NCBI GenBank assembly: GCA_043823745.1
Contig: JBDRAN010000035.1
Span: forward strand, 13,795 to 77,794
Source of the DNA: Candidatus Omnitrophota bacterium
GTDB lineage: Bacteria; Omnitrophota; Gorgyraeia; Duberdicusellales; 4484-171
Reading direction: 5' to 3'
Length of the DNA: 64,000 nt
The notes beneath the pieces are model-generated. The model was given only the letters and a program-made list of their open reading frames with translations. It did not search any database and was not told where the DNA came from. Shown one piece after another: positions 12,860-41,100 of the stretch. The first letter of the stretch is position 1. The number at the start of each line of letters is the position of its first letter. The position numbers and the translations under genes were made by a program.

Positions 12860-12935
12860 GCACTATTGAGTATTGCACTTTAGGGGTTACGCACTCAATA
12901 CTCTGTACTCGATACTCAATACTTTCTTCACTAAT
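12860..12935. repeat. Intergenic hairpin repeat, GTATTGAGT family, between oppF-like and lysS
   Basis: The arm CTATTGAGTATTGCACT pairs with ACTCAATACTCTGTACTCGATACTCAATAC. Confidence 0.7.
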
Positions 12936-12953
12936 CGCTAACCGCTATCCGCT

Positions 12954-15637: not shown

Positions 15638-15639
15638 AA

Positions 15640-15765: not shown

Positions 15766-15780
15766 GTAAGCATTAGCCCC

Positions 15781-16749: not shown

Positions 16750-16794
16750 CGTACGATAGACCCATTATTCCTGCTACAGGAGCCGACAGAAAAG

Positions 16795-17106: not shown

Positions 17107-17110
17107 ACTT

Positions 17111-17117
17111 CCTCCTT
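17111..17117 (-). promoter_or_regulatory. Shine-Dalgarno AAGGAGG for the PilZ gene
   Basis: Reverse complement of CCTCCTT, 4 nt upstream of the ATG at 17104-17106. Confidence 0.6.
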
Positions 17118-17177
17118 TTTTATTGTAACATGTAAATAATTTAATAAAATATTTTTCGCATTGCGCCCTATACAATT

Positions 17178-20100
17178 CTATCGAACAACGGGTCTGGCCG
17201 GCATATCTATGCGATTCCTGAAAACAATGGTATTTTGGCGGATATGCATAGCTCTTCCGTTTGTAAGGGGCATTTCCATTGGTAACAGGGCGCTGCTGGG
17301 GCTTGACGAAGCTCCTCGGTTTTTTTCCAAAGCGTTATGTAACCCTTTTGCTTCCCACGAGATTACTTTATATTCCCATTGCAATTCAATTATCTGCCTT
17401 TTGACCTGTTCATAAGAACTTTGAAGCTGCGGGACTAAGCGGGCCACTTCTTGTTCTATTGCCTTAAGCCGCGCCTCAATCACCTGAATTCGTTTCCGCA
17501 GAGCCTCTTCTGAATCACTCGATAGAGCCGCCCTGCGCATCGTATCTATAAGTATCCGTTCATCGTCTCTTGCCGCAATGTGCGGGTCCTGGTATACTTT
17601 CTCTCTTATTGCAAGCGCTTCTTCAGGCTTGATTCTTAACGGTATGACTCCGTCATCGCCGCTTCTTACCACACCCTTGACCCCTCCCGGTAAAAGTCGA
17701 TAAAACGCAATGGCTCCTTTCGCGTTGCATTCAGCGATAATTTTTCTATCCGTATTTAAAGATTCCCTGAAATTACCTTTCTCGCCAGGAGAAGACAGCC
17801 GGTACAACTCCTGATACTGAGGGATTCTATCAAGCAGCACTACTGTCAGATAAAAACCAACCTCCCGATTACCCCACACAATACCGGCGGCTTTCGCCCC
17901 AATGCGTCTCATAACTTCACTTTCCTCCGGCCCGGGTAAAATTTCTCCCTCGGCCAGCAGTCTACTCTGACCCGTCGCTACCTGTCTATACCTCCAGAGG
18001 ATAAAGGGATGCGAATGGATAATAAACTTGCCATGAGGGACTGGCTTAATTACCTTTATGTCTCTAAACTGAGCTTCTGTCTTTTTCCCTTTATAAAAAA
18101 GTATAGGGTTAAGGGTTGCGTTCCCGGCTACTGCCGCGGTAAAGACTGACTCAATGCTTTCAGTATCAAGCACATCAACGACGGAACCAAGGGCTTGACG
18201 CAATCGCTGATCTTCTCTTAAGAAATATTCAAAATCATTACAATCGCGTAACTTCCAGACTTCAGCCGAGGATGAAGAGACCACGCTTTGAGTACTAAAA
18301 AATGATACGCTCGGTTCTTGCTTCAAGGCCTGCGTATCAGGCACTGAACTGCTTGAACTCGTAGCTGATCCGCTCAAAAACATACGCATAAAGTCCCCCG
18401 CCACTCGAAGATGCCCGTCATCTCCGGCAAATAACCTTACCTGTTCATCGCTTAAAGACTGAAAAATAGCTTTGTCTCTTGTTAAAACAAGGTTCAACAA
18501 ATTTTCAAGCGTTTCGGTTAATTGTAAATCCTTTATCCTTTTTTGTGCGTGCAACAACGAGTATCGATCTCTTCTTACTTTTCCCGCAATAGACGCTAAG
18601 CAATCCCTTATCCACTCAAGGTTACCTCGGAATTTTTTCCGTATCCCGATCGTAACAAAGCAGTTACTCACATAAATACCAACCTCCTGGGCTAGCGCAT
18701 CATCAAGAGCTATTTTTGCTGATAAGAGATTGTCCAAGGGTTCATTACTGTTGAAAGTAGGGCTTGAAACAGCTTTTCTGCTGCTGATATTTTTTGCGCT
18801 GTGAACAAAAGAAACGTCTGGCTGCACTCGTCCGAATCGGTGAGACTGATGGATTATTCCGGCTACGCGTATTTTTTTCTCAGACAAGCTTGGATTCAAC
18901 AAAGTAAATGGTCCATCCGGCAAGCTGTGAAACCAGGTGCGCAATTGATGCTGGTGAGTAACCCCAAGGGCGATTGCTGCTGGTTTTTCGGCACCCGAAG
19001 CTATAATGGTATCGAATATGCCTTCAAGCCTGGAACTCGTATAGTCTTTTGTTTCTCCACCGGCCAACACCTGAAAAGCCCGCCAGGAAATTTCGCTCTG
19101 AGTTATTTTCCAAAGCCTGATCCGTTTTGCCACGGCACCGCCACTGATAGAGTGTGGCCTGCACCAAAGCCCAACTTCCTCTTTACTGAATCGCACTGTA
19201 GCTTTTATCTTAAACAATGCTGACAGGTATGATTGCGCCAGCAGGTCTACGAAACGCTGCTGCCGGAGGTCTCTCCTACTATACGTAACCAAGGCTACAG
19301 AAGAGCTGCCACTCTCACCTTCCGGCGCATTTGGTGAGCTGGCGCGGCCTTGCCCTGAGCCTGTCGAAGGGCCGCCCTTGTCAAGACTTTCCTTATTGGC
19401 TATGGCTTCCCTTATTCGCGTAAAAATATTATCCAAGTTCTTCTGCACTGTATTTCTTAGACGCCAATAGGGGCCACTGGGCGGAACAAAAAACCGGCCT
19501 GCGGTTGGCCGTTCATCTTCATAAACAAACAACTCTTTCTCACCCAAAACAAGATAAACCATATTTGCTGATTTTGGATACTGCTTTACGAAAGCATCCC
19601 TCATCTTTTCTGTCATCACAAAGATAATAACTGCTTCTTCTATTTCTGCGCTGGTAACTTTCCGCTGCTCATGCAAAATTAAAATCGGATCGCTCTGCTT
19701 ATCTACATCTGTACCGGGATCCGAAACAACCTCACACAAGGCCGCTGACCAAACCTCTATTCTGCCTCTCAAATCATCAGGAACCATTGAACACAAGATA
19801 CCCGCCACTATCGGCGAACGCTCTTTATTTTGATTACAAAGAACCAGGACCTTATGCCTCGAGGAATCCTGCGCGCCGCTATCAAGGTTTCTTTCTTCCG
19901 GCGAGGTACGGCCGGCTTTTCTTCCCACATCTCTGGTCCCACACCCTACGCCCTTCGGATTTTCCGCCGGCGAGCTAGCCCGGCCTTTGCTATCAAGGTG
20001 TTCGAGTTGGTTTGGATTTAATTCTTTAAGCTGCCGCCAAAATGTGTATTTGATAAAATGCCAACCCTGCCTGGCATTGCGATAATCATCGTCATTCCTT

Positions 20101-23100
20101 TCTGCATCTTTAAAACATGCGTCGAGTCTAAAATAAACAGCACAGGCTCTACTAAATAATCTGCAAAAAACACCTTTGTCTTTTATTCTTTTTAAAGTAC
20201 TTCCAATACTCTTTTGCAACAAAGGCTCTACAAGCGGTATATACCAGTCAGAAGCTAAGTGTTCTACGCCGCGATCAAGATCAGAAGCCAAATTCTCAAA
20301 CAAGATTATCGCTTCTTCAGCAGCTTTCTGTAAAGCTTTTTCAATATTGGCTTGGGGATTACGAATCCGAACAGCTTCTTCATATTTTTCCTGATACATT
20401 TCTCCAAAAGCAATCGCCCAATCTCTATGGCGGCCAGGATTTAACTCTACTCCTAAATCGTGATAACCCTGTGATACCCTTCTTAATATAGAAGCATTCG
20501 TTGAACTTATTCCGGGTAACTGGGCAAAATTCCAACAGACAACAGCCATTTCTGCCAAATAACCGAGGCGGCGTTCCATGCGAAATTTATCCTTGTGCTG
20601 CTTCGCATACTCAAAACCTTCTTGAGCAAACTCCGGATAACTTTGAGCAGTCTTAGCTTGGGGGTCTGCTGCGGTCATGGCCTCAACAATTACTTCTTCG
20701 GCATACTTTCTCAAACCAACATCAGGCATATAGCCCAGTTTTGAACGGATATATTTATCGTAAGCACCTTGCGATTGCTCTATAGCATAGTGATTTCTTT
20801 CATGGATTCCCAAATGAGTAGCGGCTTTGATTGCAACACCAAGAGAATATCTTCTGTAACCAAAATTTACGGTATAAGTTTTAGAGCCCATATCTTGCCG
20901 GATAAGAAACTTTGCGGAATGGCTATCTATTTCCTCATATCGATAATCAAAAGGAATACCGCCTACAGAGCGAAGAATACTGACGAATTGCTCCTTCTGC
21001 TTCTTTGTCCAGTCCCAAGAGGAAGAGGGGCTTGAGGTTTGGCTTTCGCTACTTACTTTAGAAATAATCGAACGTAGCGTTTCTGCTTCGAATTTTTCCC
21101 TATATCTATGGGCTTCCTCTTCAAGATGTTTCAATTTCTCAGGCATATCGCTCTGTTCAAAAAGGCTTGCTAACTCCCTATATAACTCCTCACTGCCGAC
21201 GAGGAATTTGATGCGATAAAACTTTTTACATTCAAGAAGACTGTTTCTATCCTTCTTGCTCATAAGCTCTTTTATCTGCGACATTGTCATCAAGGTATGT
21301 TCTGTCTCCCTGTCAAAATTGTCGCCGAGCTCTGCTAAGCCTCCCCTGACTGCTCGAGACAATCTATTTATAGTGATTGCTTGGTCACTAAAAGCGACTT
21401 TTTTCCATTCATAATCATCAGCTACAAGGACGACAAGATCTATATCGGAACCTCTAACAATTTCACCCTGTTCATTTATTCTTTCACGGTCATGGGCCAT
21501 ACCATAGGCAACACTTCCAGTCAAAGCAAAGAAACTTTTCTCTTCTATATGCCTTCTCCGATAAGGTGCTGCATTCGCAAGAATTCCATCATAACCTGTT
21601 ACCTTGCTTTCAACAATTGAAGCCAAAAACTCGTTGTAAGATTCTAATTTTGCTTTGTGCCTTGCTAAAGCCTTTTTAAATCGTTCATCGCCTTTTAGTC
21701 CTACCACAATAAAATCCATAAACTCCTGAACAATCGTAGGCTGAATTTGCGGGCCCCTGGTGGTGAATTTGAAATATCGCTCTCCCAGCATGGCTATCTC
21801 TATCTCCGGAGTAGTTTTAGCAACTGCCCAGAGATTCAAAGCCACTAACTCTTCATTTGCCTTATCATTTAAATAAAGAACACTTTTATCTCGGTAATGC
21901 CTAGGCTTGAAACCGGCAATTTCGCTAAAAAGATCCCGGCCCAGAAGCGGCCCGGTTCTTTCAAGAACACCAAGGACTTTCTTACCTAACTTCTTTATAG
22001 CTCTGGCTCTTTCTTGGCTTGATTCGCCTGGCTCCCCCGGTGAGCTGGCCTGGCCTGTGTCCCCCATAAAAGTTCTTCTCACCTGATTCTCATCATAAGG
22101 AAAAAACATTCTATAGCTATCCATCTTCTCCGGCTTAAGGTCTGCACCAAAAAGCGATTCTCCTGATGCCGCAAAGAAATCATCCATTTGAATTGGATTA
22201 GTTGCAAAATACCTTGCTACTTCTTTACCCGCCTGACTCTTTAAATCATCATAGAAATATTTATTAGTTATACCAATAGACTCTAAAAACATACCCACAT
22301 TCCCTGAATCACCCTCAAGATCCCCAAAATCAAAGACATAGATTCTCCCGGTATCCAAATCTACGCCATAATTGCCATAAGGATAAGTAAAATCAAAGTC
22401 CATCACCCCTCTTTTGAACATCGAGATTACAAACTGTTTATAGCTGTCAATGAGACTCTTAGCCTCAGATATCCTTCCCTCTTTGCTCAAATACTTTAGG
22501 CGACTAAAAACTGGTACTACCTTTTTTTGGACAATAGCTAAATCAGTTTTCTTCACGCCACCATATTTTAAAAAATAACTGAACGGTTTCCTTGAGCCGT
22601 CGGTGGCGTTGATAATTATCGTCGGTACAGCAAGGCCGCTTAATCTTTCCTCGGCCAACTTACAGCTTCGCTTTATCCAGAAACGTAAAACATTATCTAT
22701 CTTGTCGGGATATCGGGACTTTTTTACTACAAAATCAAAACCATCTTGTGAATATGCAATGAGATGTCTGCCGACACCGACATGGCGCAGAAGATAACTC
22801 TCCGGAGAAACTTCCGCGGGGGTAATGGGTTGCTTTTGCCGTAACAACCTATCTATTTCCTTAGCTAAAAACTTACCGTCAATGGCTCTGGTTACATCTA
22901 ATCCAAATCTAATAAGAATCTCTCTTCTACCACCTAAGGCCTTTTCTTGCCGTAATTCGGCAATAGCTTTTTCGGGCAAGCCTTGAACTCCCTCTTTAAA
23001 TTGCCTCAATAATTCCCACTTGCTTACACCTGTTCTCTTCTTGCCTTTAGCCGATGGAACGTATTGAATCGAAGGTTTGGGCGGCTCCTTTGGATCGTGG

Positions 23101-26100
23101 TCATCCGTCGGCGAGCTGGCGGCTTCTATCTTACTTGTAACTTTGTGACCTTGTGGCTTGTGACTTGTCAGTGCCGGCGAGCTGGCCCCGTTAGAGATTG
23201 ACGATCCATTACCTTCTGTATCTCTAACGGGGCTGGCTCGGGACTCATCAAGTCTTGTTCGAAGCTTAGCTCCGAACAAGGCGTTCTCTGTGGCAAGGGC
23301 ATAGACCAAGGCTGCTTCTGAAAGAGCTGAGCTGCTCCGGAAAGCAGTTGGCTGATCAGCACCAGTAGGTTGCTGTAAGTAGTAAAACCATGTCTTTCCT
23401 TTTCCGGGAATTTGCAGAGATTGTAATGGGTTGGGTCTTTGCTTGGATAAGTTTATAAGATACTTTCTTGCCGTATTAGGCCTTAAACCACACCTATTTG
23501 CGATTTCGTTTACTGATATAGCTTTATCTGCTGTATCTGGCAGCACTGCCATAATTTGCTGCTCGCTTCTTTGCTTGTCTATCGCTAACTGCTCCTGCCT
23601 AGTTAATTGTGGTTTTCTAACAGCCGCCGGCACTAAGCGTTCCGGTAGCTTAGCTATTAAATCCAGTACTTTTAGTTCATCTGCCCTAAACTGCCCATCC
23701 ACATACAAAACTGGAACTTTTTCTGTTTGGTTCAATAACTTTGCTGTGATTCTAAATGCAGAAGCATCAAAATCTACAATTAATCCGGCTTTAGTTCTAG
23801 AGTCGGCTTGCTTCAGCCTATTGCGCACACCTAAATGAGCTTCCGCAAGCCCAACAGAAGCGGCTATAATAAAAAGGGGTTGAGCAAAACCAACTCTCCT
23901 AAACAAAGCTCTAAAATTATTTTTTATAGCCTTAATATGAGGTGCCTCTTCAAATCGCCCTCCTGCCTGGGTATTTGCTGCTTTAAATTCTTGCAAACCC
24001 CAGATAAGTTGTTCCAAAAATCTTCTCTTCACAATTCGCCAGGCTTCCTCTTTTAACATAAATTTGCCCTGCCTACGACAAGCTAATTTTAATTGCACCC
24101 ACTGTTTTAAATTCTTATCTATAATTTCTCTATTTTCTCCTAAACCATCAGCTAATTGTCTAATTTGGGTGAGATTTTTTGACTCTTCTTTAGATAAAAA
24201 CTGGCCAATTCTCTGCCAGCATTCAGCTTTTCTGGAGAAATCATCAATTTCTTTATCTGTTTTCTGAACAAGCCTGGCATCGACAATAAAAATGGCCTTG
24301 CCTTCTAAGCTTTGTAAATCCTGCCCAATCGTCTTCCCACCATGAACCAGGGACCGTGGCCTACTTGCACCCGCTGAGCTGGCCCGGGGGCCTGGTTTGT
24401 TTTTCCCGCCTTTTTTTCCAGAAGATGAGGTAATCCCTGTGGGGATGTATTTACATCTTTTTATAAATTTTATAGCTTGAGATATACGTAACAACTCTGA
24501 TCCCGCTCGTCTATCTCTTTCTGCATCTGTCAAATGACTATTTAGAATTTCAATAACTGCCCTTCTTATATGATAAAAATTATTATCCATGAACCTGTCT
24601 AAGCTCACTTTTTCTGAGGCAGAAACATCTCGTCCGATTTCCAAACGGCTAAAGTTTCTGAATTCTTTTTTTAAATTAGATAACATCTTCTGTCTTGCTA
24701 AAATATACACAACCCGCATGTGAATCTGGATAGGAAGAAAACCAGTATCAACATCTGCGTCTTCTCTAATGAGTTTTAAAGTTTCTACGCCTACCTTATA
24801 GTGCCTAACCGATTTTTTATGGCTGTCTTCAAGGTCATAGAGACAGGCTATGCGAATATGCAAATTGGCTATATCATTGAGGATGAGCCTCTGTTTAGGA
24901 AAATCTTCCATGGCCATTGGGCTTCTGGCCTTAATTCTTCTTAACTCCCCACCTTTTTTTGCAATTTCTTCCCGAAGGCGCCTCCTTTGCTCTCTTGCCA
25001 AGGCAAGCGTAAACATATCGCTTACAGCCATCATCCGCCTGCATCTTCTATCTATTTTTTCATAAACCCCGAAAGGATCTACCCCCATAGCCCGGCCATG
25101 AGCTTCTTCAACAGCTTCGTAGGTAACCTGCTCGCCTCTTTTAAGAATCTGAGAATACTTTTCTACCTCCATCTGGTCATGATGCAGGACCGTAGCTATA
25201 TATCTAGGATCTTCTACATCCTCCAGGAACCTTGCCGGAATATAAACTATCTTGTTTTCCTTTCCAATGTGGGTTACTTGATAGTAAGTTTGGTCGTTTG
25301 TGTCTTTTCCGTAAAGTAGAAAATGGCTCGGCACATCTACCTCGACTACTGTGGTTTCTTTCTCAAACCTACTGGCCCTTGAAATTATTTCTCTATCCCT
25401 CTTACTCTTCGGCTTAATTTTCTTCAAAGCTTCAGTTGCCTGCCGTATCTTTTCGGCATTTGACGAATTTAAAGCCAGCGGCAAATTTTCCTGCCAAAGC
25501 TTCTTTTCATAGTAACTTCCTTCCTTTATTATCTTTTTGGGAAAAGCCCGGATAATTAAATCCACCTGATGGTGACGCGGAAACACATCTCCTTGCCCAA
25601 AAGAACTGTTGGGAGAATAAAAATCTTGCCAGCGCTCTACGGCGCTTGAACCTTTCTTGCCCACGGAAAGGTGGCCGGGAATAAATTCTTTTATAAAAAA
25701 TGTAAAAAGGCCTTTTTTAGTTAAATAAGCCTTGGGGGAAATTATTTTAGCCTGTTCAAACATCTTTTTAACAAATAACTCAGATACGCATGAATTGTGC
25801 ACAGTCTTAGCCGGAGAGCTGGAAGCAATGCTTTTTATCTTTCTTTTATCAGGCGAGCTGGCGGTAGGATAGCTCATAGTTCGTAACTCATAGCTCCTCG
25901 ATGATAGGTCAGTTAGAGATGACGATCTGGTCCTGAGCTGGCCCTCTCGCCTGTAATGCTGTTCATCGTGAGCAACAGGTGAAGAGCTTTGTCTATCTTG
26001 CCTGTTAACCCTGACTCTAATTATAAAAACTTTTCCTTCTTTAGGGCCGGGTTGGACTGCAATCCTGCTTTTCCCTACAGAGAGGGAAGGACTGTCATCG

Positions 26101-29100
26101 TTTCCATCTAGAATATTAGAAATAACTCTCTCGAACTTAAAAAGAATGATCGGCAGTTTAACAATTCTTTCTCTCTCTCGGTATCGCAATATGATTGTTC
26201 CGTTATCTTGAGGTGTAGCTTCAAACCCATACTCTCTGAATACCCCGTTAAGCTTATCAATAATTTCATAAATAGAACCCGAAACATGAATGCGAATTGT
26301 GCGCTTATTAGGTAAAGTCATTCCGCAAGAATCTGGTAAAATATTAAACATTATCTGACTTGACCTTATGCCATTTTCCGGCGAGCTAGCCCGGCCGCCG
26401 TTGTCGAAGGGACCCTCTTCTGATTGGTGAGATGATGAGCTCAGCGTTGTCTGTAGCAGTTTAAGGTACGCATCGACCTTCCTCAAATAGCCCTCGTCCC
26501 CGAGTAACAATCCCCGCTGAGTCGTTAAAACTCCGGGATGCGTGGAAAGAAAATCTGTAAAATCGGTGTTTGCTCTGATCCAAATACTGACTCTCTCAGC
26601 AATATCCCCAAGGGAGAAATCATCCGATAATGAGTCGAAATAACACCATTTAATGGAAACGGCCATGCTGTCAAATCCATGAATAACGCCCAGTGTTCGT
26701 TGGAGTCGAGTCATGCTAAGGCTCGGCAGGAGGTTCATGGCTTCCTGGGCATAGTTGGTAGCCAAAAATAGGTATACACAGCAGCGGATCTCACGGCTCT
26801 TCTGCTTGCTCCATGAAATAAGTATTCTTTCAAGATCCCGAACATGAAATGTAGCCCCCCAGAGTTTCATCGTCGCATCCATATCTTTAAACCATATCCA
26901 CACATCTCTTAAGGCGCAATAGGCCGAAATGTCATCTATGCCCATAACCGCCGATTTCGCGGTCTTGAGTAATCGTTGAAGAATAGCCAAATTATCCGAA
27001 AAATTCATGAAAGCACTTTGCTCGGGCCTCTTAATCAAAGAATTATCAGCTTGACCCGAATCAACCGATGCTCGCAGGCGAGCTACCTCTTCGCTAAAAT
27101 AATCCAAGCCTTGCGATGACGAGCTGGCGGCTTCTCTCTTACTTGTGACCTTGTGACCTTGTGAGGCCGGCGAGCTGACTCTATGCTTCGTAAAATAATA
27201 CATATCTGTTGCTTTCGGAAATTGCTGATTCCGAGGCAATCCGAATTTTACCATCAGTCCGGCTTGATTTTCCTTTGATACCAACCCTGTTATAATTAAA
27301 GTTCCCGTTTGAATAAGAAGGTCATATAAATTGTCCGCTGCCGGCTCGATATCCATATCGCCACAAAAGACAAGCGCAGAATATATGGTGTCAAACCTAA
27401 GGGCTTTCCAGGACGCGGGAATGTTTTCGATACTTCCTTTTATAAAACGTCCGTCGTTATTATTAAAATTTTCTACGCCATTTCCCATTACCGGCTCTAT
27501 TGCGTGCACTTTTGCCGGATCGAAGCCAAGACGGTTAATCAAAAACAAACCGATTGAACACCGCCCGCCGCATCCTACTTCAAGAAACATCTGTTCTTTC
27601 AAAGTCTTTAACTTCTCCCCTACAACACCCAGCCCCTCATTCCCGACAAGTGCATCCACAAACTTCTTTAAATCCAGACGTTCACCATCGTCGAGCAATG
27701 CGTCCCTTTTTATCGCCGAAAATAATGTAGCAGCCATCACCGAAGGGCTAGGCGAGCTGACTGACACAATCTGCCGTTGCTGCATATCCCTAGCTAACTC
27801 TTGAATAAAAACATCGATCTTTTCTTTGGTAACGTGCTGCATAGCCATGATGTGCACAAAATCTCCATACGGGGCCAGCTGCCATCTATCTATCAACTCT
27901 TGAGAGGGCCTGGCAAATATCACAGTATTGGAAAACTCATTCAGCTCCGAAGGACATCCTATTTTCTGCAGCTTCCGGTAAAGATATTGCGCATTCTCCA
28001 TGCATAAACCCGCTTCTTTCCTGAAGCCTTCATATCCTTTTGTCGTAACAGCGTGCCATAAATAAAATAACACCTGCCCGCTCTGGGCGGTTAATAACTC
28101 TTCTACCTGTCGCATAAAATTTTGGCTAGCGCAGCTTTCGCGAACCATGAATATACCCGAAGGCATCGGCAGCCCCATAAACTTGTGCCCGGATATGGCA
28201 ACACTATGGACGCTTTTGGCTAAGTCTATCTTTGGCGCACCTTCTAAAAACGGCAGCATCATACCGGAAAGAGCGGCGTCACAATGAATATGAAAGTCGG
28301 CAACATGGCATTGGCTTAGAATACCTATTACTCTTTCCGGACTATCTATAGCGCCCCTCATAGTCGTTCCGATATTAAGGTTTAAAATGACCGGCCGACC
28401 GCGATTGGCTTTTATCGCCTTCTCCAATTTGCTATAATCGATCTCACCGTTGGGTAAAGATGGGATCTTTATCGCTATCCTTTCCTCGTTGTATATTGAA
28501 TAATCGGAATCTTCTCGGTATTTAATTATCTGCATATTCAATAGCCTAGCTATCTTGTCTATCGAATAATGCGAATCTTCGCTATAATAAAGTATTCCGG
28601 TGGGCCTGCCGGGGAAGCGTTGTATTCCGGCTAAGATTCCTATCAGATTTCCCCATGTCCCGCCAGCAGTTACTCCACTAAAAACATCCTCATCTTCGAC
28701 ACCGTACAACTTTGTGAAAAAATCAAGCGCCTCCTGTCCAAATGCTTGCGCGTCTTCTTTTCGTAAAATATATTTAAACAGATTCTGCAAGTCGCCATAC
28801 GACTCTTTGCTTGCTGTTATATTCGCGGGAAATCCCAAAAATCTTTCCATCAGCTTTTTCAAGCGTCCTTCAAGTCTATCCAAAGTATCAAGGACTTCCC
28901 GGGAAGGCTGATAGGCGATTTCTTCACTGACCTCAATATCGCCGGGAGTCAATACCCCCTGCTGTAAGGTACCACCCAAATGGTCTTTCAATAAATCGTT
29001 CACAAATTCCGCTATCTCTATGTTTGTCAAATAAGGTATGGCCTCGAAGCATGATTCCCGACCGTAAGATAAAAGCCCCCACTTTCTACGCACCTCAAAG

Positions 29101-32100
29101 GAAGGCTGTTTGAAAATTAGGGTCTGGCGATCACCAAGCCTACAAGGATACCCTTTGCTGCTAAGCGTTTTATTAATGTAGGCTGAAACCTCTATTGCCC
29201 GCCTGGCTCTAAGCTTAAATCCTGGGCTTCCCATAACTTTTACCGCCAACCAGAGATAGAGGGGAACGTGTCCACTGCGTGATCCGGGAATGGTCGTGTC
29301 TTCAGCATTAACATATTCTACCCTGTCCCGGCCGCTTGAAATATTACCCACATATTCCTTTTTCGTCAAGGCAATCGCTCCGAGAACCGACAACCCCATA
29401 AAACTGCCCAACGGCAAGGCCATGCTGTCCACACCGTGTTCAAAATCTATCTTTGAATTGCCTCCCAGAAAGGACTCGCCTATGCTTAACGGCGACATGT
29501 TGTAATGGATATGCTTTTGTTTTACGCCGGCACAACCCAGGATACCCTTGACCTTGCCTAAATCGTCTACAGCACCCAATAGCCTTCCGGCATTAAGACA
29601 CACTATGGCCGGGCCGCCGTTCTGCCCTACTTTTTCCTTTAGGTCGGCGTAATCAATTTCTCCGCTTGGCGAGGACTTGATAATCTTTATCCTGTTCTCC
29701 TTTACGCCTAATATCTGCAGCGCGTAGTAAAGAAGGCCGTCAACATGATTGGATAGATAATAGATCGCGTTCCTGGAAAACCGGCTGCGAGCGATAAGCA
29801 TCGCATAAAGTTCGGCCTGCTGCCTGTTGATAGTCACATGGCCGCCGTATCCCTCGGAAATTTTAAAATGCCCGGCCCAGAACTCCAGGAGCTCACGCTC
29901 CTGTTCTTTTGTATTATTCCTTACATAGGTTTCGTCATCCGGCTCGCCCAAGTTATTTAACTGATACTGATAAAAACGGGTTAGGATATCATAAAGCGGA
30001 TTCGCCTTCGGGGCGCTGTCTCCAATCCTTCTCTCAAACTCTTGTAGCCTTCTGGCTATTTGGCCGGAATCTACGGGGCTCAACCTGACGCCGTTGTCGG
30101 CGCTGGCGCCCGGTGAGCTTGACGATTGTCTTTCTATCTGTGTGTCAATTTGCTGCGCCAGCCTCTTAACATCCTGCGCAATAGTTGAAATATTAACTTC
30201 TAAAACTGCTATCTCAAACTCTCCCTCTAAATCGAGTTTTGCCTGACTGCTCCAGTCCCTTGCGCTTACATCCCGGCCTTCGGCTCTATGGTGTTCGATA
30301 AATTTCCTTATTTGTTCTAGATTCCTAACTTCATAAATTGCCTCTACATAGTGAAAACTTAAAGGAAGGCTTGCTTCATCATCCTCTGGAGATATTGAAG
30401 GATCGTGCCCAGCATAGAGCTCACACTCATCTTTTTCCTTAGCCACATATCCCATCAGTTGGTCGTCTGCTATCGCTTCCCATTTTCCTGTAGCAATTAA
30501 GGCCTTTTTCAATGTACTTTTTCCAGCGCTCGATAATCCTGTCAACAATATTACTTTTCCAGAACTCTTACTCCTTATTAAAACCCCAAAAATGTCAAAG
30601 GGAAGGTCTGAGGAAAGGCGTTGTAGTTGCTTTTTAGCTAACTCATCATTTCTTTTGTCTGCCTCGGATAATGCTGTTTCCAGGTTAAATATTAAATGCC
30701 CTCTTCTATCTGTTACGTTAAATCTCTTATCTATGTGCGTTATATATCTATACAATGTATTAAGACGTTCGATTGTAGCTATTCTATGCCTCGGTGCTGC
30801 GGGACTTGAGGCTCCCCTTGATAAAACAACAGGTTTACGAAGGTTTAAATCTTTAATAAAAATAACTCGGGTACCGCTTTTAACGGGGGTATCTTCATAA
30901 TGCCGCTCCTTCTCGAAGTCTTTTTCCCAATGCCGGGCTTGAGATCTTCCGGCTATATTTGTAACGGTGGTAATCAGAATATGGTCAGAATTATTTACCA
31001 TTATCGTCAGGCCGGTTCCCTCATGGCCCGACTGCCTAAAAGACTTTCTGGGCAAAATAGCTATATGTAGAGGGGCCAACTCCTGGTAGTCGTCAATAAA
31101 ACCATCGCCGCGATCAAGAAGAACAAAGGTAAAACGAACTTTACTTTTACCTATAGTTTGAATCCTTAACAGTAAGGCTCCGATATCTCCGGCCATTAAA
31201 TTCCTGGCATGCTGCCAAATGTTTTCTACGGCTTTGCCGACAGCGTTTAGCACTTCATCGTACTCATCGGCATTAAACAGGTTTTTGTTCTTTCCCAGAA
31301 AAGACCTCGCAAAGGAGTTTAGCTCACGAGTCTTGCCAACGATGATTTCCTGCAAATCTTGAGGAAATTCACAATAAAAATCTGACTGTAGTTCACTGAT
31401 AGTTTTCGCGCGAACTCCCCTGGCGGCAAGCATATCCACCCATAACCGATTGATGTGGCTGTAGCCCTCTTCATCTAGAAAGGGTAAACCGGCAGAGGGT
31501 TGATTTTTCCCGCCTGGGCGATGGGAAAGGGTTTTATCTGAAGCCGGCGAGCTGGCCCGGCCGCCGTCATTGTCGAGAGAAGCCGGTGGATTGCCTAAGT
31601 TGGATTCATTCTGTAACATGGTAAGTGCCTTAAAATACTGCAGGGCGGTACCACCCCCCTTTGCAGTATCAGCTTTAAGATAGGCTGCAGTCTTTTGTGA
31701 TGCCTTAGGCAGCCATTGATCAATAGTTTCAGCCTTAACATACCATGAAGACGGAACTTCATCCTCGAATCCTAAACAATCATATTCATCGGCTCCTAAG
31801 CCTTTTTCGCTAAGTTCTCGATAGGCTCCTGGCAGAGATAAAACAATTGCAAAACCTTCATTGGAGAGCATATATATTGTCCAAGCAAGAAGGGTTTGGG
31901 CTGAACCTCGGATAGCTTTAGAGATAGTCGTACCAAGGCCGATATCGTTCGGAAAATGTTTAAACATCTCATTTACTGGAGCATTCTGCCAATAACAGAG
32001 AATGGCCTGTTGCTTGCCGCTCGAATTCGAGAAAAGCACTTCGATAACCGCCTCCACTCCCAGAATCTCCAGCTCGTTAATATTTGTAATCTCGCGGGGA

Positions 32101-35100
32101 TCCTCTTTTACGCTTAAGGCTAAGAAGAGCTCCCGCCCCTGAGACTGTTCTTCTGCTAATGCTTTAGCTGTTGCATTCACCTGGTGCATATGGGTGGCTA
32201 ACCTTGAACAAACTGTCGTTCCTTCCAAACCTTGCCATACTTTGCTATGGCCTTTTATCGAATCAAAATCGTTACGCCAGAGGGTAAAAACATTTTGTAC
32301 GGCCTTTCGTTGCCGTCGCGAAAGCTCACTCATTCGCACAGCTAAAAGCAGGCGCGTCTGTTTTCCGGTTAAAGAATATTCATGTACGATAAGAGTATTG
32401 CTAAAGGAGGGGGCAATGAACTGGTTAACGATCGGGCTTGTGACAGGTACCGGTGAAGAGGAAGTGTCGCCGTTATCTAGGGAGCACGGCGAGCTGGCCC
32501 GTATTAGTCTATAGTCCATAGTCGATAGTCCATAGTCAGGGGAGATTAAAATAAAGGCGGGCAAGAGCAAGATTCCTTCGCCCGGGCGTCTGGATATCAG
32601 GGAAATTCTCTTGTGATAATTTCCCTGAAACGCCACGGGCATAGCCACTGCGTGGCTAGGTGGGGCTTTGTTGGACAAGCTGCTGAAGAAATCGTATTGG
32701 GTATTGGGTATTGGGTATTGGGTAAAAAATGGGTAAACGGCTGCGGCAGGTCGACCAGATCCCACCAGCCACGGAGAGGTAAACTGGTCTATAAAACCCT
32801 GCCGCAACCGAATATCTGCTTCTTGCTTATTTGCTTCTCTGCTTCTTGCTTTTGAGGCCGGGGAGCTGGCGCCTTTCCCTGGTCTTGGGCATTGAGATCC
32901 AGCCTCGGTCGTAGTATTCCTGACTTGGGTAGAAGTGAAAAATTCTTTGCCAAAAACTCTTTCACCCTCCTTTTGTAACCTCGCCAAATCCTGCTGAGAT
33001 TTCCTTAAGCGCTCAAGTAGCTCTACGGGAATTCCTGTAGGGAAATTTATACTGAAACTTGAGGCGCCTGTTTTCTCCGACGGGCTGGAGGCCCGAAGGG
33101 CCGACATCCCCGCAGGGGGGCTGGCCTCTTTTTGTCGGTCGTCGTTCATAGGTGGTCTATCTCCAGGAACAAAATCATAATCCGGACTGACCCAAGCTTT
33201 GCCGCCGGAAGCAACATCAATGCTAAGCTTCCTGCCACAAATCGTGCCGCCGGTACAGCGACTATCGACAGATAAGCCGTTACTGCGCAAAAAAGAAACA
33301 ATCTTTCGGGCGTAGGCTTGACCGCAAGCAGAATGTCCGCCGGCGACGGAGGCGATTATCCTATCCTTATTCGCTCCCAATTGTTCAAAAACTTCCAGCA
33401 CCGCCGAAAGAGTTTCTTTGGGCCAATCAGACTCTATAGCAGAAATCTTGTTACGTTTAGGGCCATCTTCGTTATTAAAAAAATGGCTTAAGAAAAATGC
33501 TTTCATTCCATTACTAAGAGAAGCGCTAAAAGTTACGCCAACACAGTTTACAAGGTTAGCGGTTAATAACTTCCTCACCTTGGCCTGAGAGGGAACGCCG
33601 ACAAAAATAACTGCTGTACGGAAATAAACAAAAAATGCACCTTCTCTTTTGGTGTATAGATAATACTCTCTTTCAGCCTGGCGAAAGCGGGAGTTTTTCA
33701 CTGAAAGATTATGAAAAACTAAAATATTGCCGCCAGCATCTTGCAGGCCTTCAATTCTTTTTTGCGGCTCAGCTAGCATTTCAAAAAGAACACTTTTTTG
33801 CGGCGAGCTGGCGTGGAACTTTGGCTGTGGTCTATTACTTTCAAGATGCGAAACTATTCCTTCATGCCTATCATACAAACGTATTGTAATTTCGGGGCGA
33901 TCATACACAATCCCGGATGTATTAGGATGCTGCGTATCATTTATAAAAAATCCAAAGGTGCGCTTTTTATCTTCAAGGAATGAATGTATTTCCCGAAGCA
34001 TCGACTGTCCATCACGCGAACCGGCCTTTTTGGCGACTAAATCGATGGGTATCAGTATTTCTAATTTATGCGCAAAATCCACGATACCTTGCAATACCAT
34101 GCGGACACAGGCCTCCCACCACCACCCATAAAGCACTACCCTAACATGTTCTGTGCGTGGTTTGTGATAACTAACATAAAACCGAGTTGCGTCAACAATG
34201 GCACCAATGTGATCTCGAGGCGGCACAGATAACACAGTATAGCCAAGACCTTTCATGCATAAGGAAAACTCTTCGTTCTCTTTTGCGTGCACTGGAACAA
34301 CTACTACTTTTATACTGTCCGCTGAGCTGGCCCTCTTCGGGTCGTGTGTATTGCGTGGTGCGTATTGCGATGATTTAAACTCTCCACTGGTGACTGGTGA
34401 CTGGTGACCTGGTAACTTTTTTAGCGCCGGTGAGCTGACCACTTGTTCGTCGTGGGTCTTGAGTATTGGGTATTGTGTTGAATCGACTTCTTCACTGGTG
34501 ACTTTGTGACTTTGTGACGTGTGACCTTGTGAGGCCGGCGAGCTGGCGGAATCCGTTTTGTTACTTTGGGAAAACGGTGGGACGCGGGTTGGAAAATTTT
34601 TGCTACTTTTCGTATTGGAAATTTGAGACCTTGATGATACCTGGCTGATTATTCTTTCAGCTGTTGAAAACGGTAAGGTGCATTCTTTAGCAATAACCGC
34701 AGGCTGTAATATCCCATCTCTGGCCAGTTTATTTTGAATATAATCCTCTATTTGAGCACAAGTCATAAGCCGGCCCTTCTCCGGTGATGCCGCGTAAAAA
34801 TCATAGTGAGATATCCCTTCTTTATCTAAAACCGGCTCCCAGTCTAACCCCAGTAATCGTAAACCCTTAAACAGTAGCCCAATATAGTGATTTCCTATTA
34901 TATGCTCTGCTTGGTATATATACATCACGGAATCGCCTCTAATGCGCCTCAAGGTAAAATTCGAAAGGTCTGGCATCCTAAAACTCTGATAATAAGGATT
35001 ATCCCGGGGAAAATTGTCAGGGTCTAATTGCCATATTCCACGCCCTCTTCGTATAATAAGATAACGGATGAGACCGGGATGGTTGGTCATCCGGGCATGG

Positions 35101-38100
35101 ATAAAAACTTCTCCCTTGACAACATCGTGTACATAACGCCGGTCAACGGCATGAGTAACGGGAACTATTCGCACTCCTTTTACATAGGAAAGCACTTCGC
35201 TCAATTCAAAGTCACCCTTTTCTACTGCCTCCTTTCGTAAGTCCTCTAAAAGATAATCAGCTCTTTCCTGAGAGGACTTATCAAAGTAAGGCTTTCTATA
35301 TTGAGAAAATGAGTGTGCTAATCTTGCTATCCTCTCTGATTTCTGAAATAGTAGACTGGAAAACATAGAGAAATAATGCCCTGTGAGGTATATAATATTC
35401 AAGGAAAGGGGTAGAAAAAATAATATTGCCACCATAGTATTCTCTAAAGGTAATAAGGAAAAAACTATGTAATAAATAGATACAAATCCTATTATTTTAT
35501 AAAAAACGAGAAAGGGCTTATAAAAAATGCTGCGCGGCTGCTTCGTATATTCATATTTCCGGAAAACATCTTTCATCAAAATCAGGTGCCAATCAAAGAT
35601 CAGCGGCAGACGCAATACGGAAAGAAGCGTATAAAAATATACACCGAATGATGACCGCGCTCTTGATAGCTCCGTGGCGTTTAAATTAACAACCCTGCTC
35701 CCCTGCGGCCGATGCGCGCGGACGGAAGAAGGAGATGAGCTTCTCCGAAAAGCAGTTGACTGGCCAGCGCCAGTAGGTTGCTCTAAATAGTAAAACCACG
35801 TCTTTCCTTTTCCGGAAACTTGCAGAGATTGTAATGGATTAGGCCTTCGCCCCAATAAGCGCTCAAGACACTTTCTTACCATACCAGAACTTAAGCCACA
35901 CCTATCTACGATTTCGCTTACTGACATAGCTCTATCTGCTGTATCGGACAGCACGGCCATAATTTGTTGCTCGGTTGACTGTTTGTTTCTCGCCAACTGC
36001 TCCTGCCTCATTAATCTTGGTTTTCGAACAGCCAGAGGCGTTAAGCTTTCCGGAAACTTAGCTATTAAATCCAATGTTTTTAGCTCAGCTGCCCCAAGTT
36101 GCCCATCAATATATAAAACAGGAACTTTTTCTGTTTGGCCAAATAATTTTACTGTGGTTCTAAACATAGAGGCATCGAAATTTACAATCAATCCTGCTTT
36201 AATCCCAGAGTCAGCTTGCTCCAGCCTATTGCGCACACATAGATGAGCCTCAGCGATCCCAACCGCAGCGGCCACAATAAAAAGAGGTTGAGCAAAACCA
36301 GCGCGCCTAAACAGAGCTTTAAAATTATTTTTTATAGCCTTAATATGGGCAGGCTCTTCAGATCGCCCCCTTCTCTGGGCCTTTGCCGCCTTTAATTCCT
36401 GCAAGCCCCAGATAAATTGTTCCAACAATCTTCTCTGCATAATTCGCCAGGCTTCCTCTTTTAACATAAATGTACCCTGCCTGTGACAAGCTAATTTTAA
36501 TCGCACCCATTCTTTTAAATCATTATCTATAATTTCTATATTTTCCCCTACATTATCAGCGAATTGTCTAATTTGGGCGAGAGTCTTTGGCCCTTGAGCT
36601 AAGAACCGGCTGATTTTCTGCCAGCGGTCAGCTTTTCTGGAGAAAGCATTCATTTCTTTATCTGTTTTTTGAACAAGCCTGGCATCAACAATGAAAATAG
36701 CCTTGCCTTTTAAGCTTTGTAAGCGCTGTACAATCATGTTCCTGCTATAACCCACACCCGAGGAACCGGCGGGAACGGGGGAACCGGCAACTGCACCTTC
36801 AACATCAGAAATAAATCTCTTTATAGATTCAGCATCGTCAGCATAACTTTTACCATTAAAGTTCTCACGCACTATGCCAATAACATAACCATTTTCATTC
36901 ACAACTGGTGCGCCGCTAAAACCAGGAGGCACCATAGTATCAATTTCAATAACCCCGCTTCTGAATATTCTTTTAGCTTTTGCGAAAATTATCTCGTTAT
37001 TGCCATTGTTACCCTTGTCTTGCCTGCCTAGAATAAATACATCTACCCCTTGTTTTTGGTCTAATCTCGGAAAATTCCGACGCGAATATCGTATGAATTT
37101 GGCCAACGGCTCTATTTTCTTCTTTTTTAAACCTTTATTTGTTAACCTAACAAGACCCTTATCAGATATTAGCACTGGAGGCTTTTGCAATCTTCTTCTT
37201 GAGCACCTGGAATAAAACCGAGAGCTTGAAAGGGTACCAAAACTTCCTTCCAAGTTGATATAGTCCGGTTGATTGTCAAATGCGTGCCCTGCGGTAACAA
37301 CATAATAATTATCGCTGCATTCGTTCCAAATAATACCGGAACAGCTATAAAAATGGTGCCTATACCCTGCCCTTCGGCGTGGCTTTACCACAACAAATAA
37401 TCTAAATATTGCCTCTAACCTTTCACGCGGTATGTTTGGAAATCTAGCTAATATGAAAGACATCAATAACTGTTCATTGACTTGTCCCGCTGAGCTGGCC
37501 TTACCTTCTCCCTCTGCGGCCTGCCGCAAATCACCGGATTCAAGCCTCCCAGCGAGTTTTCTAAGGTGCGCGTCCCTTATTTCCCGGGCAGCCGGGATGA
37601 GTCGGCTTAGATCCTCCCTGTTTAAAGCTCGGGCAATCCAAGCTAAATCGTGCTGGCTTATGTCCCGGCTCGAGGCCGCTAAAATCAGGATTTCTTCTTT
37701 TCTCCGCAGGGCTTCCTGCAAGCCCTTCATTTCCTGGAAAGAAGCTCTGGCTTCGATACAATTATAGTCGGACCATTTTCTTTCACCGGGATTTTCGTAT
37801 CTGGCCACATGGCCTATCATTTCATGAAGCACTATATCGAATAAATATGCCGGCAAACGGAACTCATCTTCCGCAATCATTATGATGTAATTCATTACCC
37901 CGGAAACTTTGCAGCTAAGGATTATCGCCCCCTTCTGTTTTGAATAAGAACTATCATGTTTGGGTATATATCCCAAAGTTTCCAAAGCAGAAGCCAATGC
38001 CTGTCTATTTGCGGTGACCACGGTCTGAATCCTCCTCTTTTTAACAAGCGTAAGCAGCAAAGAGTAATCCTGGGGTGATATGGCTTTAAGGATTCCCATA

Positions 38101-41100
38101 CTTAAGGCGATACTCCGCATCTCCTTATCCGTTACCGGCCTTACCTGCCTGCGGACTTCCCTGGGCATTATTGACATTGACAGGTAACGCCCCCCTAATC
38201 TATCCAGCTTTGAGTCCAGAAAACGCTGAGAACCTGAAGACGACGAGCTGACGGAGGAAGATGTAACTCCTAACTGTTTTAAAATCTTCTGAGCCCCCTC
38301 ATCGCCTCTCTTTGCATCTTCTTGTAAAATTTTAATAGTTTTCTCACTCGCCTTCCTCAAATAAAATTCACTCTCAGCGGGTCGCAATAATCCTGTTTTT
38401 AACTCTTCGCGTCTAAGAATGATAATCATTTTTAAATTTGAACGGATAGCAATATTCTTATTACGTGTAATATTTATTACATAACGGAGAAGTTGCCGGC
38501 CGGCACCGATAAAGAAACTATTCTTATCTTGCTTGTTGCTGGGTCTCTTTTCCAACCAAACGAGCGCATCTGTTCCATCTTTTTGCTCTTCTATTACAAT
38601 AAAACTCTCTACGGATAGTTGAGGCTCATAGCTATTCTTGCTAAAAGAAAAATATATGCGCCTTAGCGGTCTTACTTGTTGAAAATATTGCTTATAGTCA
38701 GTCCGTCTTAAACAACGGGCAACATCAGCAAGCAGTAGCGAATTCTCTGGTCCAATATCACTGACTTGATATTCTGGCCAATATTTTTCAAACTCCGCGA
38801 TAACACCCTGTCGTTCTTTTTCAGAGAGCTCTGATACTTCCCGAACCGGTAAGATCTTTTGACCGGGAACGCCTCTAAACACAAGATTCTCCTTCACGAT
38901 AATGCCTCTCTTTAAAATCTGATTATCGTATATGTTTATTCTTTCAGCCGGCGAGCTGGCCACTTGTTTTTTAAAAACCTTCGCAATAGATTCTGCTTCG
39001 GCGCTTACCTCTTGCCAAGATGTATTGCTTGTAACCGGAATTAAGATAATAAAAATCGAAGGATGCCTGGCGCGAGTTAAAATATTAGAGACGAGTGGCG
39101 GTGATTTAATAAATGAAAAATCCCTATGCCTCCTTTTACCCCCGATAAATTCATCAGCAATGGTTTTATTTTCAGAAGAAAGATCATCATAATCTAAGTT
39201 AAGCTGAGCATATTTTTTCTCTCTAGCTTCAGCTATATCCTTAACGTTTGATTCATAACCAGGACTATAAAGCCTGTCGAAAAACGACATAATCCCTAAT
39301 AGATTCTTTATATTCGCCGAAGAATATGTAGTACGTATCCGCTTTCTAAAAAAGATTTTAACTGCCGCCCGCAAAGGTAATTCAATGTTTTTATCAATAT
39401 CCCCTTCATCTTGAAAAGTTAACGCCGGCGATACCCAAATAGGTTCTATATGCATAAGCGAATCTCTAGGTGCAGTCTCTTTCATCTTTCGTATATCGTC
39501 GTTCGTATATCGTTTATCGTTTGTCGGGGAGCCAGCAGCTTCTCTCCCACTTGTGACTTTGTGACCTGGTGACTGGTGACTTTGTGAAGCTGGCGAGCTG
39601 GCGGAACTTGATTGTTCAAAAATAGCAAGATGGTGTAGTTTAAGGTATAAATCTATTGTATCTTTTGTTAACTGTTGCGGTTTAATAAGGCCTTCGAGGC
39701 TAGTTTGTTCCAATAAATCCAGAAAATCCCAAATAAAAACATCCATTTTCTCTAAAAGAACTGTTGCGTTTCCCTGTTGGCCGAATCCTCCTTCTAAATA
39801 ATCACCCACTGCTCTTTGAAGTTGAGGAATATAGGCAGCTAACACTGCCGGACATCTTCCTGATAAAGTATTTCGAATTGATCCCGCCAACCTAACCACT
39901 ATTTTCTTTTGACTCGGAAAAAAATCACCAAGATCTCTTGCGGCTGCACGAATTAAGCTTTCTATTCCCCTTCGGATATCATCCTTTGCTAAAACCTCTT
40001 CTTCAGAAAAAACATCTGCTGACAGCATTTGAAGGCTTCGAGAATCATCCATTAATTCTAATACATCGATGATGCCTTTACCGGCAGCCATTCGTACGAG
40101 CGGATTATAATCGCTTTTTATTAAGGTTTCAGAAAGATTACCAAGAAGAAGATACCTAATTGCTGGTTGTTCGATAGCTGCTAAATGCTTAGCAACTAAC
40201 TCAATCAAGGCAAACTCTAATGACCACTCACCATGTTGCAGGGCTGCATTTAAAGTGCCTAGAAGAGGGTTGATAAATTCAGACTCAGAGGCCAAGCCCG
40301 TGCTGGAAATTCTGTATGCGGCAATTGCTCGAAATCTATAATCTAAATCAGGCGAAATCATTTTACCAATCAATTGCTCTAGCGGCGCAGGACTTGACAC
40401 TTTGCCATTTTCTTCAGTACCCCCTACATCAGGATAATCGAAGTTTACCTCACCGGCTTCTTCACAAAACCTTTTAACCTGCTCAATAGTGTGTATTATC
40501 TGACTCTCTCCGGGGCTTGAAGATCCCGCCGGCGAGTTAGCCCTACTCCGCCCTTGAGACTCACCAGTCTTTTCTCCTTCTGCACCGGAAGTAGAAACAG
40601 TTTGTACATAGCGTTTCAGAAACCTCCTCACAAGAAGAAGGCCTTTCTTATTGATACGATACACCGCTAAGTTACCCCTTTTCTGCATTGTAGTCACATA
40701 TCGCCTGCTGCGGGCAACGTTGATGAGGCTGCGAACATTCCAATGTCTACCTTTGAAGATGTCTGCATGGGCAATATCATCATAGGTGCATCTTTCCCGC
40801 AGCGATGAGTCAGCCGCAACACAAAAAACAAGTATGTGATAACCGGCAAAACCTCTCGGCTCTGGATAGTGTTCAGCACTGTAATAGTCCCATATTTTTG
40901 TCAAGTCGCCGCCAAACTCTTCACTTACTATTCTGTCTATTTCTTCCTTTAGTGTTTGAACATTCGGTGAACTTACCCGTCTCCCCGGTGAGCTGGCCTT
41001 ATCGTTGTGGACGGTATTACGCCGTACGCCCGGCGTGTTGAGTCGTGAGCCTTGCGAGGAAACCTTCCTGATCTTTGACAGTATTCTTCCTATAAGATCC

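Follow-up and report, generated by a model that had tools for sequence, protein, structure and literature searches.

The 64,000-nucleotide (nt) stretch of Candidatus Omnitrophota DNA analysed here (contig JBDRAN010000035.1 of assembly GCA_043823745.1; hereafter the window, at its full length) contains a giant open reading frame (ORF) in which a sequence-only reading had reported a direct repeat of about 1 kb. The question raised by the locus is whether this repeat is a true duplication within the gene, and, if it is, what was copied and what has become of the copies. The ORF lies on the minus strand, from 17178 to beyond 64000, and comprises at least 15,606 codons, with 46.8 kb in the window and the sole stop at its end. 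Codon i begins at nt 63998-3(i-1), and amino acid (aa) numbers count from the window edge. The N-terminus of the giant ORF lies beyond that edge, and the statements on gene content below refer to the window portion (15.6 kaa).

The repeat was found to be real. Its copies, A and B, form a dispersed, non-tandem internal duplication within a single ORF, in which the reading frame was kept. The ORF and the two copies are located as follows:

17178..64000, minus strand: the giant ORF, a mosaic of unrelated enzyme modules parted by Ser-Ser linkers
35748..36734, minus strand: copy A of the duplicated module (aa 9089-9417; nucleotide match 35728-36742)
23340..24329, minus strand: copy B of the duplicated module (aa 13224-13553; nucleotide match 23320-24337)

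The duplicated cassette and its linker boundaries

Alignment of 35728-36742 with 23320-24337 by blastn showed 82.5% identity over 1018 nt, with 175 mismatches, a single 3-nt gap and an E-value of 0. A repeat scan of the window returned 81-82% identical blocks at a spacing of 12,405-12,408 nt. The repeat had been placed 12.4 kb apart at about 85% nucleotide identity; its coordinates were correct to within about 30 nt, and the identity was essentially right, the measured value being slightly lower. At the protein level, copy A (329 aa) and copy B (330 aa) are 72% identical, and both are in frame. A profile built from the two copies detected exactly two copies in the window, with the next best match at E 0.6, and no third copy was present in the window when this profile was applied at E up to 10. 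Further copies may lie in the stretch of the gene that the window does not reach.

The sequences on either side of the two copies differ. Copy A is flanked by a Trypsin_2 domain and the main hydrophobic cluster of the protein, and copy B by an unannotated module and by a further module, termed X:

36873..37343, minus strand: Trypsin_2 peptidase domain, directly N-terminal of copy A (E 1.9e-8, above the gathering score)
35343..35651, minus strand: cluster of about four hydrophobic helices, directly C-terminal of copy A (Kyte-Doolittle scan and sequence)
24408..25781, minus strand: module X (aa ~12740-13197), an orphan, directly N-terminal of copy B

As the flanks differ, only the cassette itself was copied. 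Its limits coincide with short serine-rich linkers:

35730..35747, minus strand: linker R-R-S-S-S-P (AGC TCA) at the C-terminal end of copy A, where homology to B stops
23325..23339, minus strand: linker R-S-S-S-A (AGC TCA) at the C-terminal end of copy B, where homology to A stops
24369..24386, minus strand: canonical linker R-A-S-S-A-G (GCC AGC TCA), 17 codons upstream of copy B, parting B from module X
36756..36770, minus strand: degenerate linker A-G-S-S-G (GGT TCC TCG) between the trypsin-like domain and copy A

On the C-terminal side, both copies carry R-[R/S]-S-S-[S/A], encoded by CGG AGN AGC TCA, and the homology stops at most three codons from an in-frame AGCTC Ser-Ser site. On the N-terminal side, the homology begins 9-17 codons past a Ser-Ser linker. 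What was duplicated is a cassette that runs from linker to linker. Ser-Ser linkers likewise mark the ends of two further paralogue pairs (aa 6079-6229 / 7648-7798, and module X with its relative X', described below), and a total of 59 in-frame AGCTC Ser-Ser sites cut the giant ORF into gene-sized pieces. No inverted repeats bounding copies A and B were found.

The linker DNA is conserved beyond the needs of the peptide, and its codon choice is far more uniform. The tetrapeptide ASSP occurs 32 times in the ORF, and 13 of these sites use the identical 12-mer GCCAGCTCGCCG, for which the codon usage of the gene predicts about 0.1 occurrences. The motif GCCAGCTCRCC was observed 22 times, with 0.07 occurrences expected, and all 22 lie within the giant ORF, on its coding strand; in its extended form, GCCAGCTCRCC(GG), it encodes [R/G/K]-A-S-S-P-[A/G] (examples at 43783-43793, 34537-34547 and 23176-23186). 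Of the 31 cases of the element GCCAGCTC, 30 are in codon phase. The residue preceding the ASS linkers is most often arginine (13 of 57 ASS sites, relative to an Arg background of 7.8%). Neither the A-S-S-P linker nor its conserved DNA is mentioned in Nielsen & Lui 2026, West-Roberts et al. 2023 or Seymour et al. 2023, as judged by text searches, and the pattern of linker plus short-repeat DNA returned 0 matches in the JGI metagenomes. The codon-phased A-S-S-P linker is a more interesting lead than the duplication.

Synonymous and nonsynonymous differences between the copies were counted by the Nei-Gojobori method, which gave 61.8 synonymous differences over 215 sites and 108.2 nonsynonymous differences over 772 sites (dS 0.36, dN 0.155, omega 0.43; Fisher p = 1.2e-6). 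The synonymous excess per site and the omega of 0.43 indicate that the frame is translated and constrained. Purifying selection on the copies is relaxed but significant, with at least one copy constrained, and probably both. The divergence is even along the module, with 67-93% identity per 20 codons and differences at all three codon positions, and the longest identical run is 31 nt, compared with about 27 nt expected at a uniform 82.5% identity. With divergence this even and a run length this near to expectation, nothing points to gene conversion, and the duplication is not a recent one.

The sequence-only reading had described the duplication as recent and as a hotspot for recombination. The first description is at odds with the dS of 0.36 and with a nucleotide divergence of 17.5% that is spread evenly. 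DNA that is 17.5% divergent is a poor substrate for homologous recombination, and no conversion tracts were seen at the 82.5% identity of the two copies, so the second is not supported either. The A/B pair is real and moderately old, and internal duplication of this kind is ordinary for the giant genes of Omnitrophota.

A stretch at the window edge had also been put forward as a third, partial copy of the repeat:

63654..63998, minus strand: module X' (aa 1-115, truncated at the window edge), whose old paralogue is the end of module X and not A/B

Its paralogy with 24408-24752, the last 115 aa of module X, was upheld, at 56% aa identity (E 1e-39) and 70% nucleotide identity over 212 nt, and the 21-mer that had been quoted recurs with 20 of 21 positions matched at 24720-24740. 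However, the stretch is not a third 1-kb copy, because X' is kin to module X and the A+B profile gives two copies only. The synonymous sites of the X/X' pair are saturated, and the sequence following X' at the edge bears no relation to the A/B module. No homologues of module X were found in a word-indexed search of 5.8 billion proteins.

An older paralogous pair was observed at 45312-45764 and 40605-41057 (aa 6079-6229 and 7648-7798), with 49% aa identity and saturated dS. Judged by eye, each of the two modules terminates in a stretch that resembles another winged-helix wing (RGxxAVYRINxKGL), and the pair is bounded by ASS[LP] and SSS linkers.

Domain composition of the cassette

The cassette is composed of a lineage-specific N-terminal domain of about 240 aa that has no recognisable family, and a C-terminal winged helix of about 75 aa, the latter assigned with moderate confidence from profile matches and a predicted structure:

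35790..36008, minus strand: predicted winged-helix domain of copy A (module residues ~244-316; HTH_24, HTH_IclR and MarR_2 sub-threshold; LrpA1 E 0.0016; AlphaFold2 model)
23382..23600, minus strand: predicted winged-helix domain of copy B (HTH_IclR E 0.0017; phrog_2030 E 4e-4; AlphaFold2 topology and fold matches)

Sub-threshold helix-turn-helix (HTH) matches agree on residues ~245-298 of both copies in five libraries (Pfam, NCBIfam, PHROGs, PADLOC and PDB profiles). In Pfam, the C-terminal ~75 aa matched HTH_IclR, HTH_24, Rrf2, DeoR, MarR_2 and DprA_WH, with the best scores for HTH_IclR (18.5 bits, cut-off 22) and HTH_24 (17.8 bits, cut-off 21.9). The NCBIfam match was LrpA1, and that in PHROGs was the transcriptional regulator family phrog_2030 (E 4e-4). 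The PADLOC matches were to the HTH parts of CasR and Csa3, and those among the PDB profiles were to the GntR-like Lmo2241 and the RPC3 winged helix.

Fold prediction had been proposed as a check on the module, and it was informative for one part of it: the C-terminal region was modelled as a winged helix, but the N-terminal model was unreliable. The AlphaFold2 model of the last 95 aa had a mean predicted local distance difference test score (pLDDT) of 64, with values of 63-79 over the winged-helix core. Its elements (H9-27, E35-37, H38-45, H49-62, E67-71, E78-82) follow the order a1-b1-a2-a3-b2-wing-b3. The fold search used this 95-aa C-terminal model alone, the AlphaFold2 model of the whole module being too poor (pLDDT 41.6). 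Nearly all of the top 50 PDB matches contain winged-helix domains, with a best E-value of 3e-3; they include MarR, NolR/HlyU (ArsR), Zalpha, RPC39, SelB and PapI, at TM-scores of about 0.45-0.59, and the root-mean-square deviation for the MarR, Zalpha and RPC39 matches was 1.8-3.6 A over 64-72 residues. The earlier proposal of paralogous modules ending in a winged helix is supported; the quoted peptides are present, and the modules measure 329 and 330 aa.

The modelled topology and fold matches are shared with the winged helix-turn-helix (wHTH) domains of the MarR, ArsR-SmtB, IclR and GntR families and with winged helices that do not bind DNA (Zalpha, RPC39/RPC3, SelB). Unlike the wHTH regulators, which are dimers of ~150-aa proteins, the predicted winged helix here lies C-terminal to a 240-aa orphan domain in a giant polypeptide.

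The alpha/beta core with conserved acidic residues that the sequence-only reading had proposed is putative; the N-terminal domain contains one candidate acidic motif, DFD in copy B and NFD in copy A. Identification of this domain as Toprim, CARF (Csa3-like) or receiver was considered and set aside, as none of the three had profile support, the PADLOC matches to Csa3 and CasR cover the HTH alone, and copy A does not conserve the DxD-like motif.

The A/B module is an orphan in the databases searched. A word-indexed search of 5.8 billion proteins returned nothing for copy B and no homologue for the C-terminal 707 aa of the giant ORF. In an exhaustive profile search of 1.84 billion representative proteins, the only match was P0001, a 2252-aa fragment of this same protein, which is encoded on contig JAHJZK010000179.1 of a metagenome-assembled genome (MAG); a match to a repetitive epimerase-like protein in this search was judged to be spurious. 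No relatives of the module were identified in GTDB genomes, JGI metagenomes, viral contigs (IMG/VR), plasmids or phages.

Origin of the pair and competing explanations

Taken as a whole, the observations are probably best explained by a linker-to-linker cassette duplication in an Omnitrophota multi-enzyme giant gene. A single copying event carried the whole cassette, in frame, from one linker region between modules to another at a distance of 12.4 kb, and the near-identical linker DNA may have supplied the microhomology for this step. Since then the copies have diverged evenly, to 82.5% nucleotide and 72% aa identity. This structural and evolutionary part of the explanation is well supported.

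The functional part is tentative. The module may be a binding unit rather than an enzyme, with a winged helix that would bind nucleic acid or a partner protein and an N-terminal domain that could serve for sensing or oligomerisation, as in one-component regulators. Of all 14-aa windows, the predicted recognition helix is the one least conserved between the copies (4 of 14 identical), which is suggestive of, and would fit, recognition helices that diverged after the duplication to give two specificities. The Ser-Ser linkers (mostly A-S-S-P) could act as flexible spacers and possibly as protease processing sites. The putative processing at the linkers is a reasonable idea because the same polypeptide contains M23 and trypsin-like domains and three HExxH motifs, and because arginine is the most frequent residue before ASS; it would free the module from the polyprotein, and such release would help to explain why a giant protein should contain a DNA-binding module.

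Several points weigh against this explanation. No wHTH family model was matched above its curated threshold, and the fold search, run on a model with a mean pLDDT of 64, reached E-values of only about 3e-3. The N-terminal 240 aa had no match in any profile library, and their AlphaFold2 model is unreliable (pLDDT 24-58). An omega of 0.43 could also arise as an average over a constrained copy and a decaying one, and the intact frame is not evidence for a function of the module, because a stop would truncate all of the downstream modules. The excess divergence of the recognition helix was not significant after correction for the choice of window (permutation p = 0.088). The function of the module is a prediction, no homologue that would tie it to a function having been found, linker cleavage and linker recombination are both putative, and a DNA-binding domain is odd in a giant, partly membrane-embedded protein unless it is released.

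One challenge to the pair is technical. The sequence-only reading had warned of assembly collapse and of hidden copies, and a public MAG of the same organism is indeed highly fragmented (3.4- and 6.8-kb contigs), while the gene contains many short repeated linker elements. Copies prone to collapse are near-identical and share exact words beyond the k-mer or read length; copies A and B differ at 175 of 1018 positions, and their longest shared word is 31 nt, so that k-mers above 31 separate them and collapse would not occur at the usual k-mer sizes. Contig JAHJZK010000179.1 (6758 bp), from a MAG that was deposited independently, matches window 35051-41808 at 100% identity and crosses copy A into unique flanks of 677 and 5066 nt, and the frame is open across all junctions. 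As there is no shared exact word above 31 nt and an independent contig runs over copy A, collapse is not a concern, and it is hardly credible that the copies or their order reflect mis-joining or the collapse of a high-copy repeat, with more copies at 23-37 kb. Nearly as improbable is the insertion, on two occasions, of an in-frame selfish or mobile element, such as an IS-like HTH protein, an intein-like element or a phage regulator. What speaks for it are weak matches confined to the HTH region (IS21 transposase HTH, E 0.058; phrog_2030, E 4e-4). However, no relatives were found in the viral contigs, phages and plasmids searched, there are no terminal inverted repeats or target duplications around the copies, no transposase, recombinase or intein domains were found, the module has no start or stop codon of its own, and the copies are 17.5% divergent.

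Two further explanations accept the duplication and differ as to what maintains or produced it. In one, a single copy is functional and the other is a decaying passenger, kept open as filler since a stop would truncate thousands of downstream codons. An omega of 0.43 is high for a bacterial protein and would fit such an average of constrained and neutral branches, the differences fall over all three codon positions, the acidic motif reads D-F-D in B and N-F-D in A, and no outgroup was found with which to part the two branches. Decay is harder to reconcile with a single 3-nt indel in 1018 nt, with the long invariant blocks common to both copies (for example, GKAIFIVDARLVQKTDKE and GKGKTWFYYL), and with synonymous changes that exceed nonsynonymous ones per site (p = 1e-6); on balance, we regard it as fairly unlikely. 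In the other, the in-frame linker DNA, which hardly varies (GCCAGCTCGCCGG), serves as a dedicated recombination joint that preserves phase, and A/B is one event of cassette shuffling, the alternative being an ordinary illegitimate or tandem duplication whose products were later parted by insertions. The abundance of the linker motif (22 GCCAGCTCRCC sites for an expectation of 0.07, none of them off the coding strand), the phasing of GCCAGCTC (30/31) and the recurrence of the identical 12-mer (13/32 ASSP sites against about 0.1 predicted) are in its favour, as are the linker ends of all three paralogue pairs and the dispersed, in-frame position of the A/B copy. However, the linker upstream of copy A is degenerate (GGT TCC TCG) and without the motif, the junctions showed no signature of a recombinase or of repeats, the nucleotide conservation of the linkers could reflect common descent or a protein or RNA constraint, and the linker element was not found in the JGI metagenomes. 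A dedicated joint of this kind is, in our judgement, unlikely.

The giant gene and the significance of its linkers

The host is an uncultured Omnitrophota bacterium, judging from the lysyl-tRNA synthetase LysS encoded in the window, which is 66-77% identical to its best matches; the top match is from a Candidatus Omnitrophota MAG, and 3 of the 6 were deposited as uncultured Planctomycetia. The MAG GCA_018827245.1, from the same organism, has two contigs that are 100% identical to window 14763-18149 and 35051-41808. Both contigs (3387 and 6758 bp) stop inside the ORF, and the gene is deposited there only as fragments; public protein sets likewise hold it only in pieces, such as the 2252-aa P0001.

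In-frame Pfam matches in the giant ORF include Peptidase_M23, a complete Glu/Leu/Phe/Val dehydrogenase, HATPase_c, MraZ, glycosyltransferase 1 (GT1), transglutaminase, Trypsin_2, two pyridoxal phosphate (PLP)-dependent decarboxylases, a methyltransferase and a low-molecular-weight phosphatase (LMWPc). In total, more than 10 unrelated Pfam families are represented, by one or two copies apiece, and none dominates by copy number. The hydrophobic cluster next to copy A (aa ~9450-9552) holds all but one of the transmembrane-like segments of the window portion, as judged only by a Kyte-Doolittle scan. The window gave no matches in Rfam and tRNA scans. The interpretation of the ORF as several genes under an altered genetic code was rejected, as the genes next to it end in normal stops and the standard table leaves the ORF open.

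In Omnitrophota, giant ORFs of more than 20 kb are common and poorly conserved (Seymour et al. 2023, PMC10066038), and a catalogue of 916 proteins defines a "multi-enzyme metabolic cluster" class (Nielsen & Lui 2026, bioRxiv 10.64898/2026.06.07.730766). In that work, at least one Pfam recurs within the protein in 65% of the Pfam-positive giants, with the nucleotide similarity between copies mostly decayed (10.64898/2026.06.07.730766). The present ORF, at 15,606 codons or more, exceeds the 10,000 codons of such giants, has an Omnitrophota host and many Pfam families, and appears to be a giant gene of this known multi-enzyme kind. It resembles the class in its host, in its length of more than 10 kaa, in having many Pfam families with none dominant, in its poorly conserved and mostly unannotated sequence, and in the repetition of domains within one polypeptide. 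It differs in that the duplicated unit has no Pfam family and no homologue in the databases searched, and in the single transmembrane-like cluster of its window portion. Hallmarks of the Archaeovorin-type giants (West-Roberts et al. 2023; Seymour et al. 2023) and dockerin-type giants, namely HEAT and dockerin/TSP3 repeats and an N-terminal C39 or S8 peptidase, were not found in the 15.6 kaa of the window portion, the N-terminal part of the gene lying outside the window.

Other features of the ORF were observed. Three HExxH motifs, LFHELGHD, LLHEATHLL and VLHEMIGHV, are present at aa ~5680, ~6383 and ~8724 (window ~46950, ~44850 and ~37830) in modules that are otherwise unannotated; they could mark zincin-like peptidases and, with M23 and Trypsin_2, would be candidate polyprotein processors. 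Tandem PLP-dependent decarboxylase-like modules with 33% aa identity lie at 27786-29663 and are followed by a methyltransferase-like module. A Cys-containing motif, CTGGxI(S/C)(C/G)RxLxIDxASGxxxW(I/V)SPDY, occurs twice, at 57150-57284 and 33171-33308, 24 kb apart and in modules that are otherwise unrelated.

Some linkers are associated with short tandem repeats. "Long linkers" of ~50-140 nt, in which two ASSP motifs flank tandem 7-8-mers (GTCACAAR, then CAATACN / CACGACN), were noted at 43641-43805, 34425-34559, 45700-45850, 39520-39610, 27110-27200 and 23100-23190. Their translation reads ...SQGHKVTSEE...SQYA..THDPKRASSP, and they form a repeat family inside the ORF. Only two strong hairpins were found in the 46.8 kb of the ORF, at 35232-35286 and near copy B:

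23178..23240, minus strand: hairpin in the ORF, ~100 nt beyond copy B (21-bp stem; folding free energy (dG) -38.6 kcal/mol, z -5.6)

The 3' arm of this hairpin is the linker motif GGGGCCAGCUCG. Long hairpins are also present between the ordinary upstream genes, at 1270-1365, 8262-8389, 9995-10102, 12775-12953 and 15640-15760, with arms made of 7-8-nt tandem repeats, a dG that reaches -50 kcal/mol and a z as low as -7.3. At three of these sites (1270-1365, 9995-10102 and 12775-12953) the repeats include GAGTATT / AATACTC units, which are similar to the CAATACN units of the long linkers. These intergenic hairpins may be terminators or elements similar to repetitive extragenic palindromes (REP-like), and are a possible source of the linker repeats in the ORF.

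The internal-duplication result removes the worry of misassembly and leaves the A/B pair as a clean natural experiment in an otherwise unalignable protein class. The pair provides the only within-gene estimate of selection for an unannotated module (omega 0.43), and it shows that "dark" parts of the giant ORF are translated and constrained. Proteolytic processing of giant proteins has been proposed, with the cleavage points unknown (West-Roberts et al. 2023, bioRxiv 10.1101/2023.11.21.568195). The linker-to-linker duplication points to the A-S-S-P linker as a place in which to seek processing sites, for which the published work lacks information (10.1101/2023.11.21.568195).

A broader possibility, which we consider distinctly improbable, is that the A/B pair is a snapshot of the building of a giant gene. 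Gene-sized cassettes would be duplicated and relocated between near-invariant, codon-phased linkers (GCCAGCTCGCCGG, encoding [R/G]-A-S-S-P-[A/G]) that serve both as frame-preserving joints and as processing sites for peptidases within the polyprotein, and some linkers would perhaps derive from intergenic short-tandem-repeat hairpins. The analogy is with viral and eukaryotic polyproteins and with exon shuffling, and it is an analogy only: gene-sized units are joined in frame by short conserved junctions, peptidase domains (M23, Trypsin_2) are present in the same polypeptide, and a unit has been copied between junctions with the frame unbroken, whereas the junction here is a codon-phase DNA motif in a bacterial ORF and not an intron or a defined protease site. 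If true, linker-based shuffling and processing would be a bacterial counterpart of exon shuffling, coupled to the maturation of a polyprotein.

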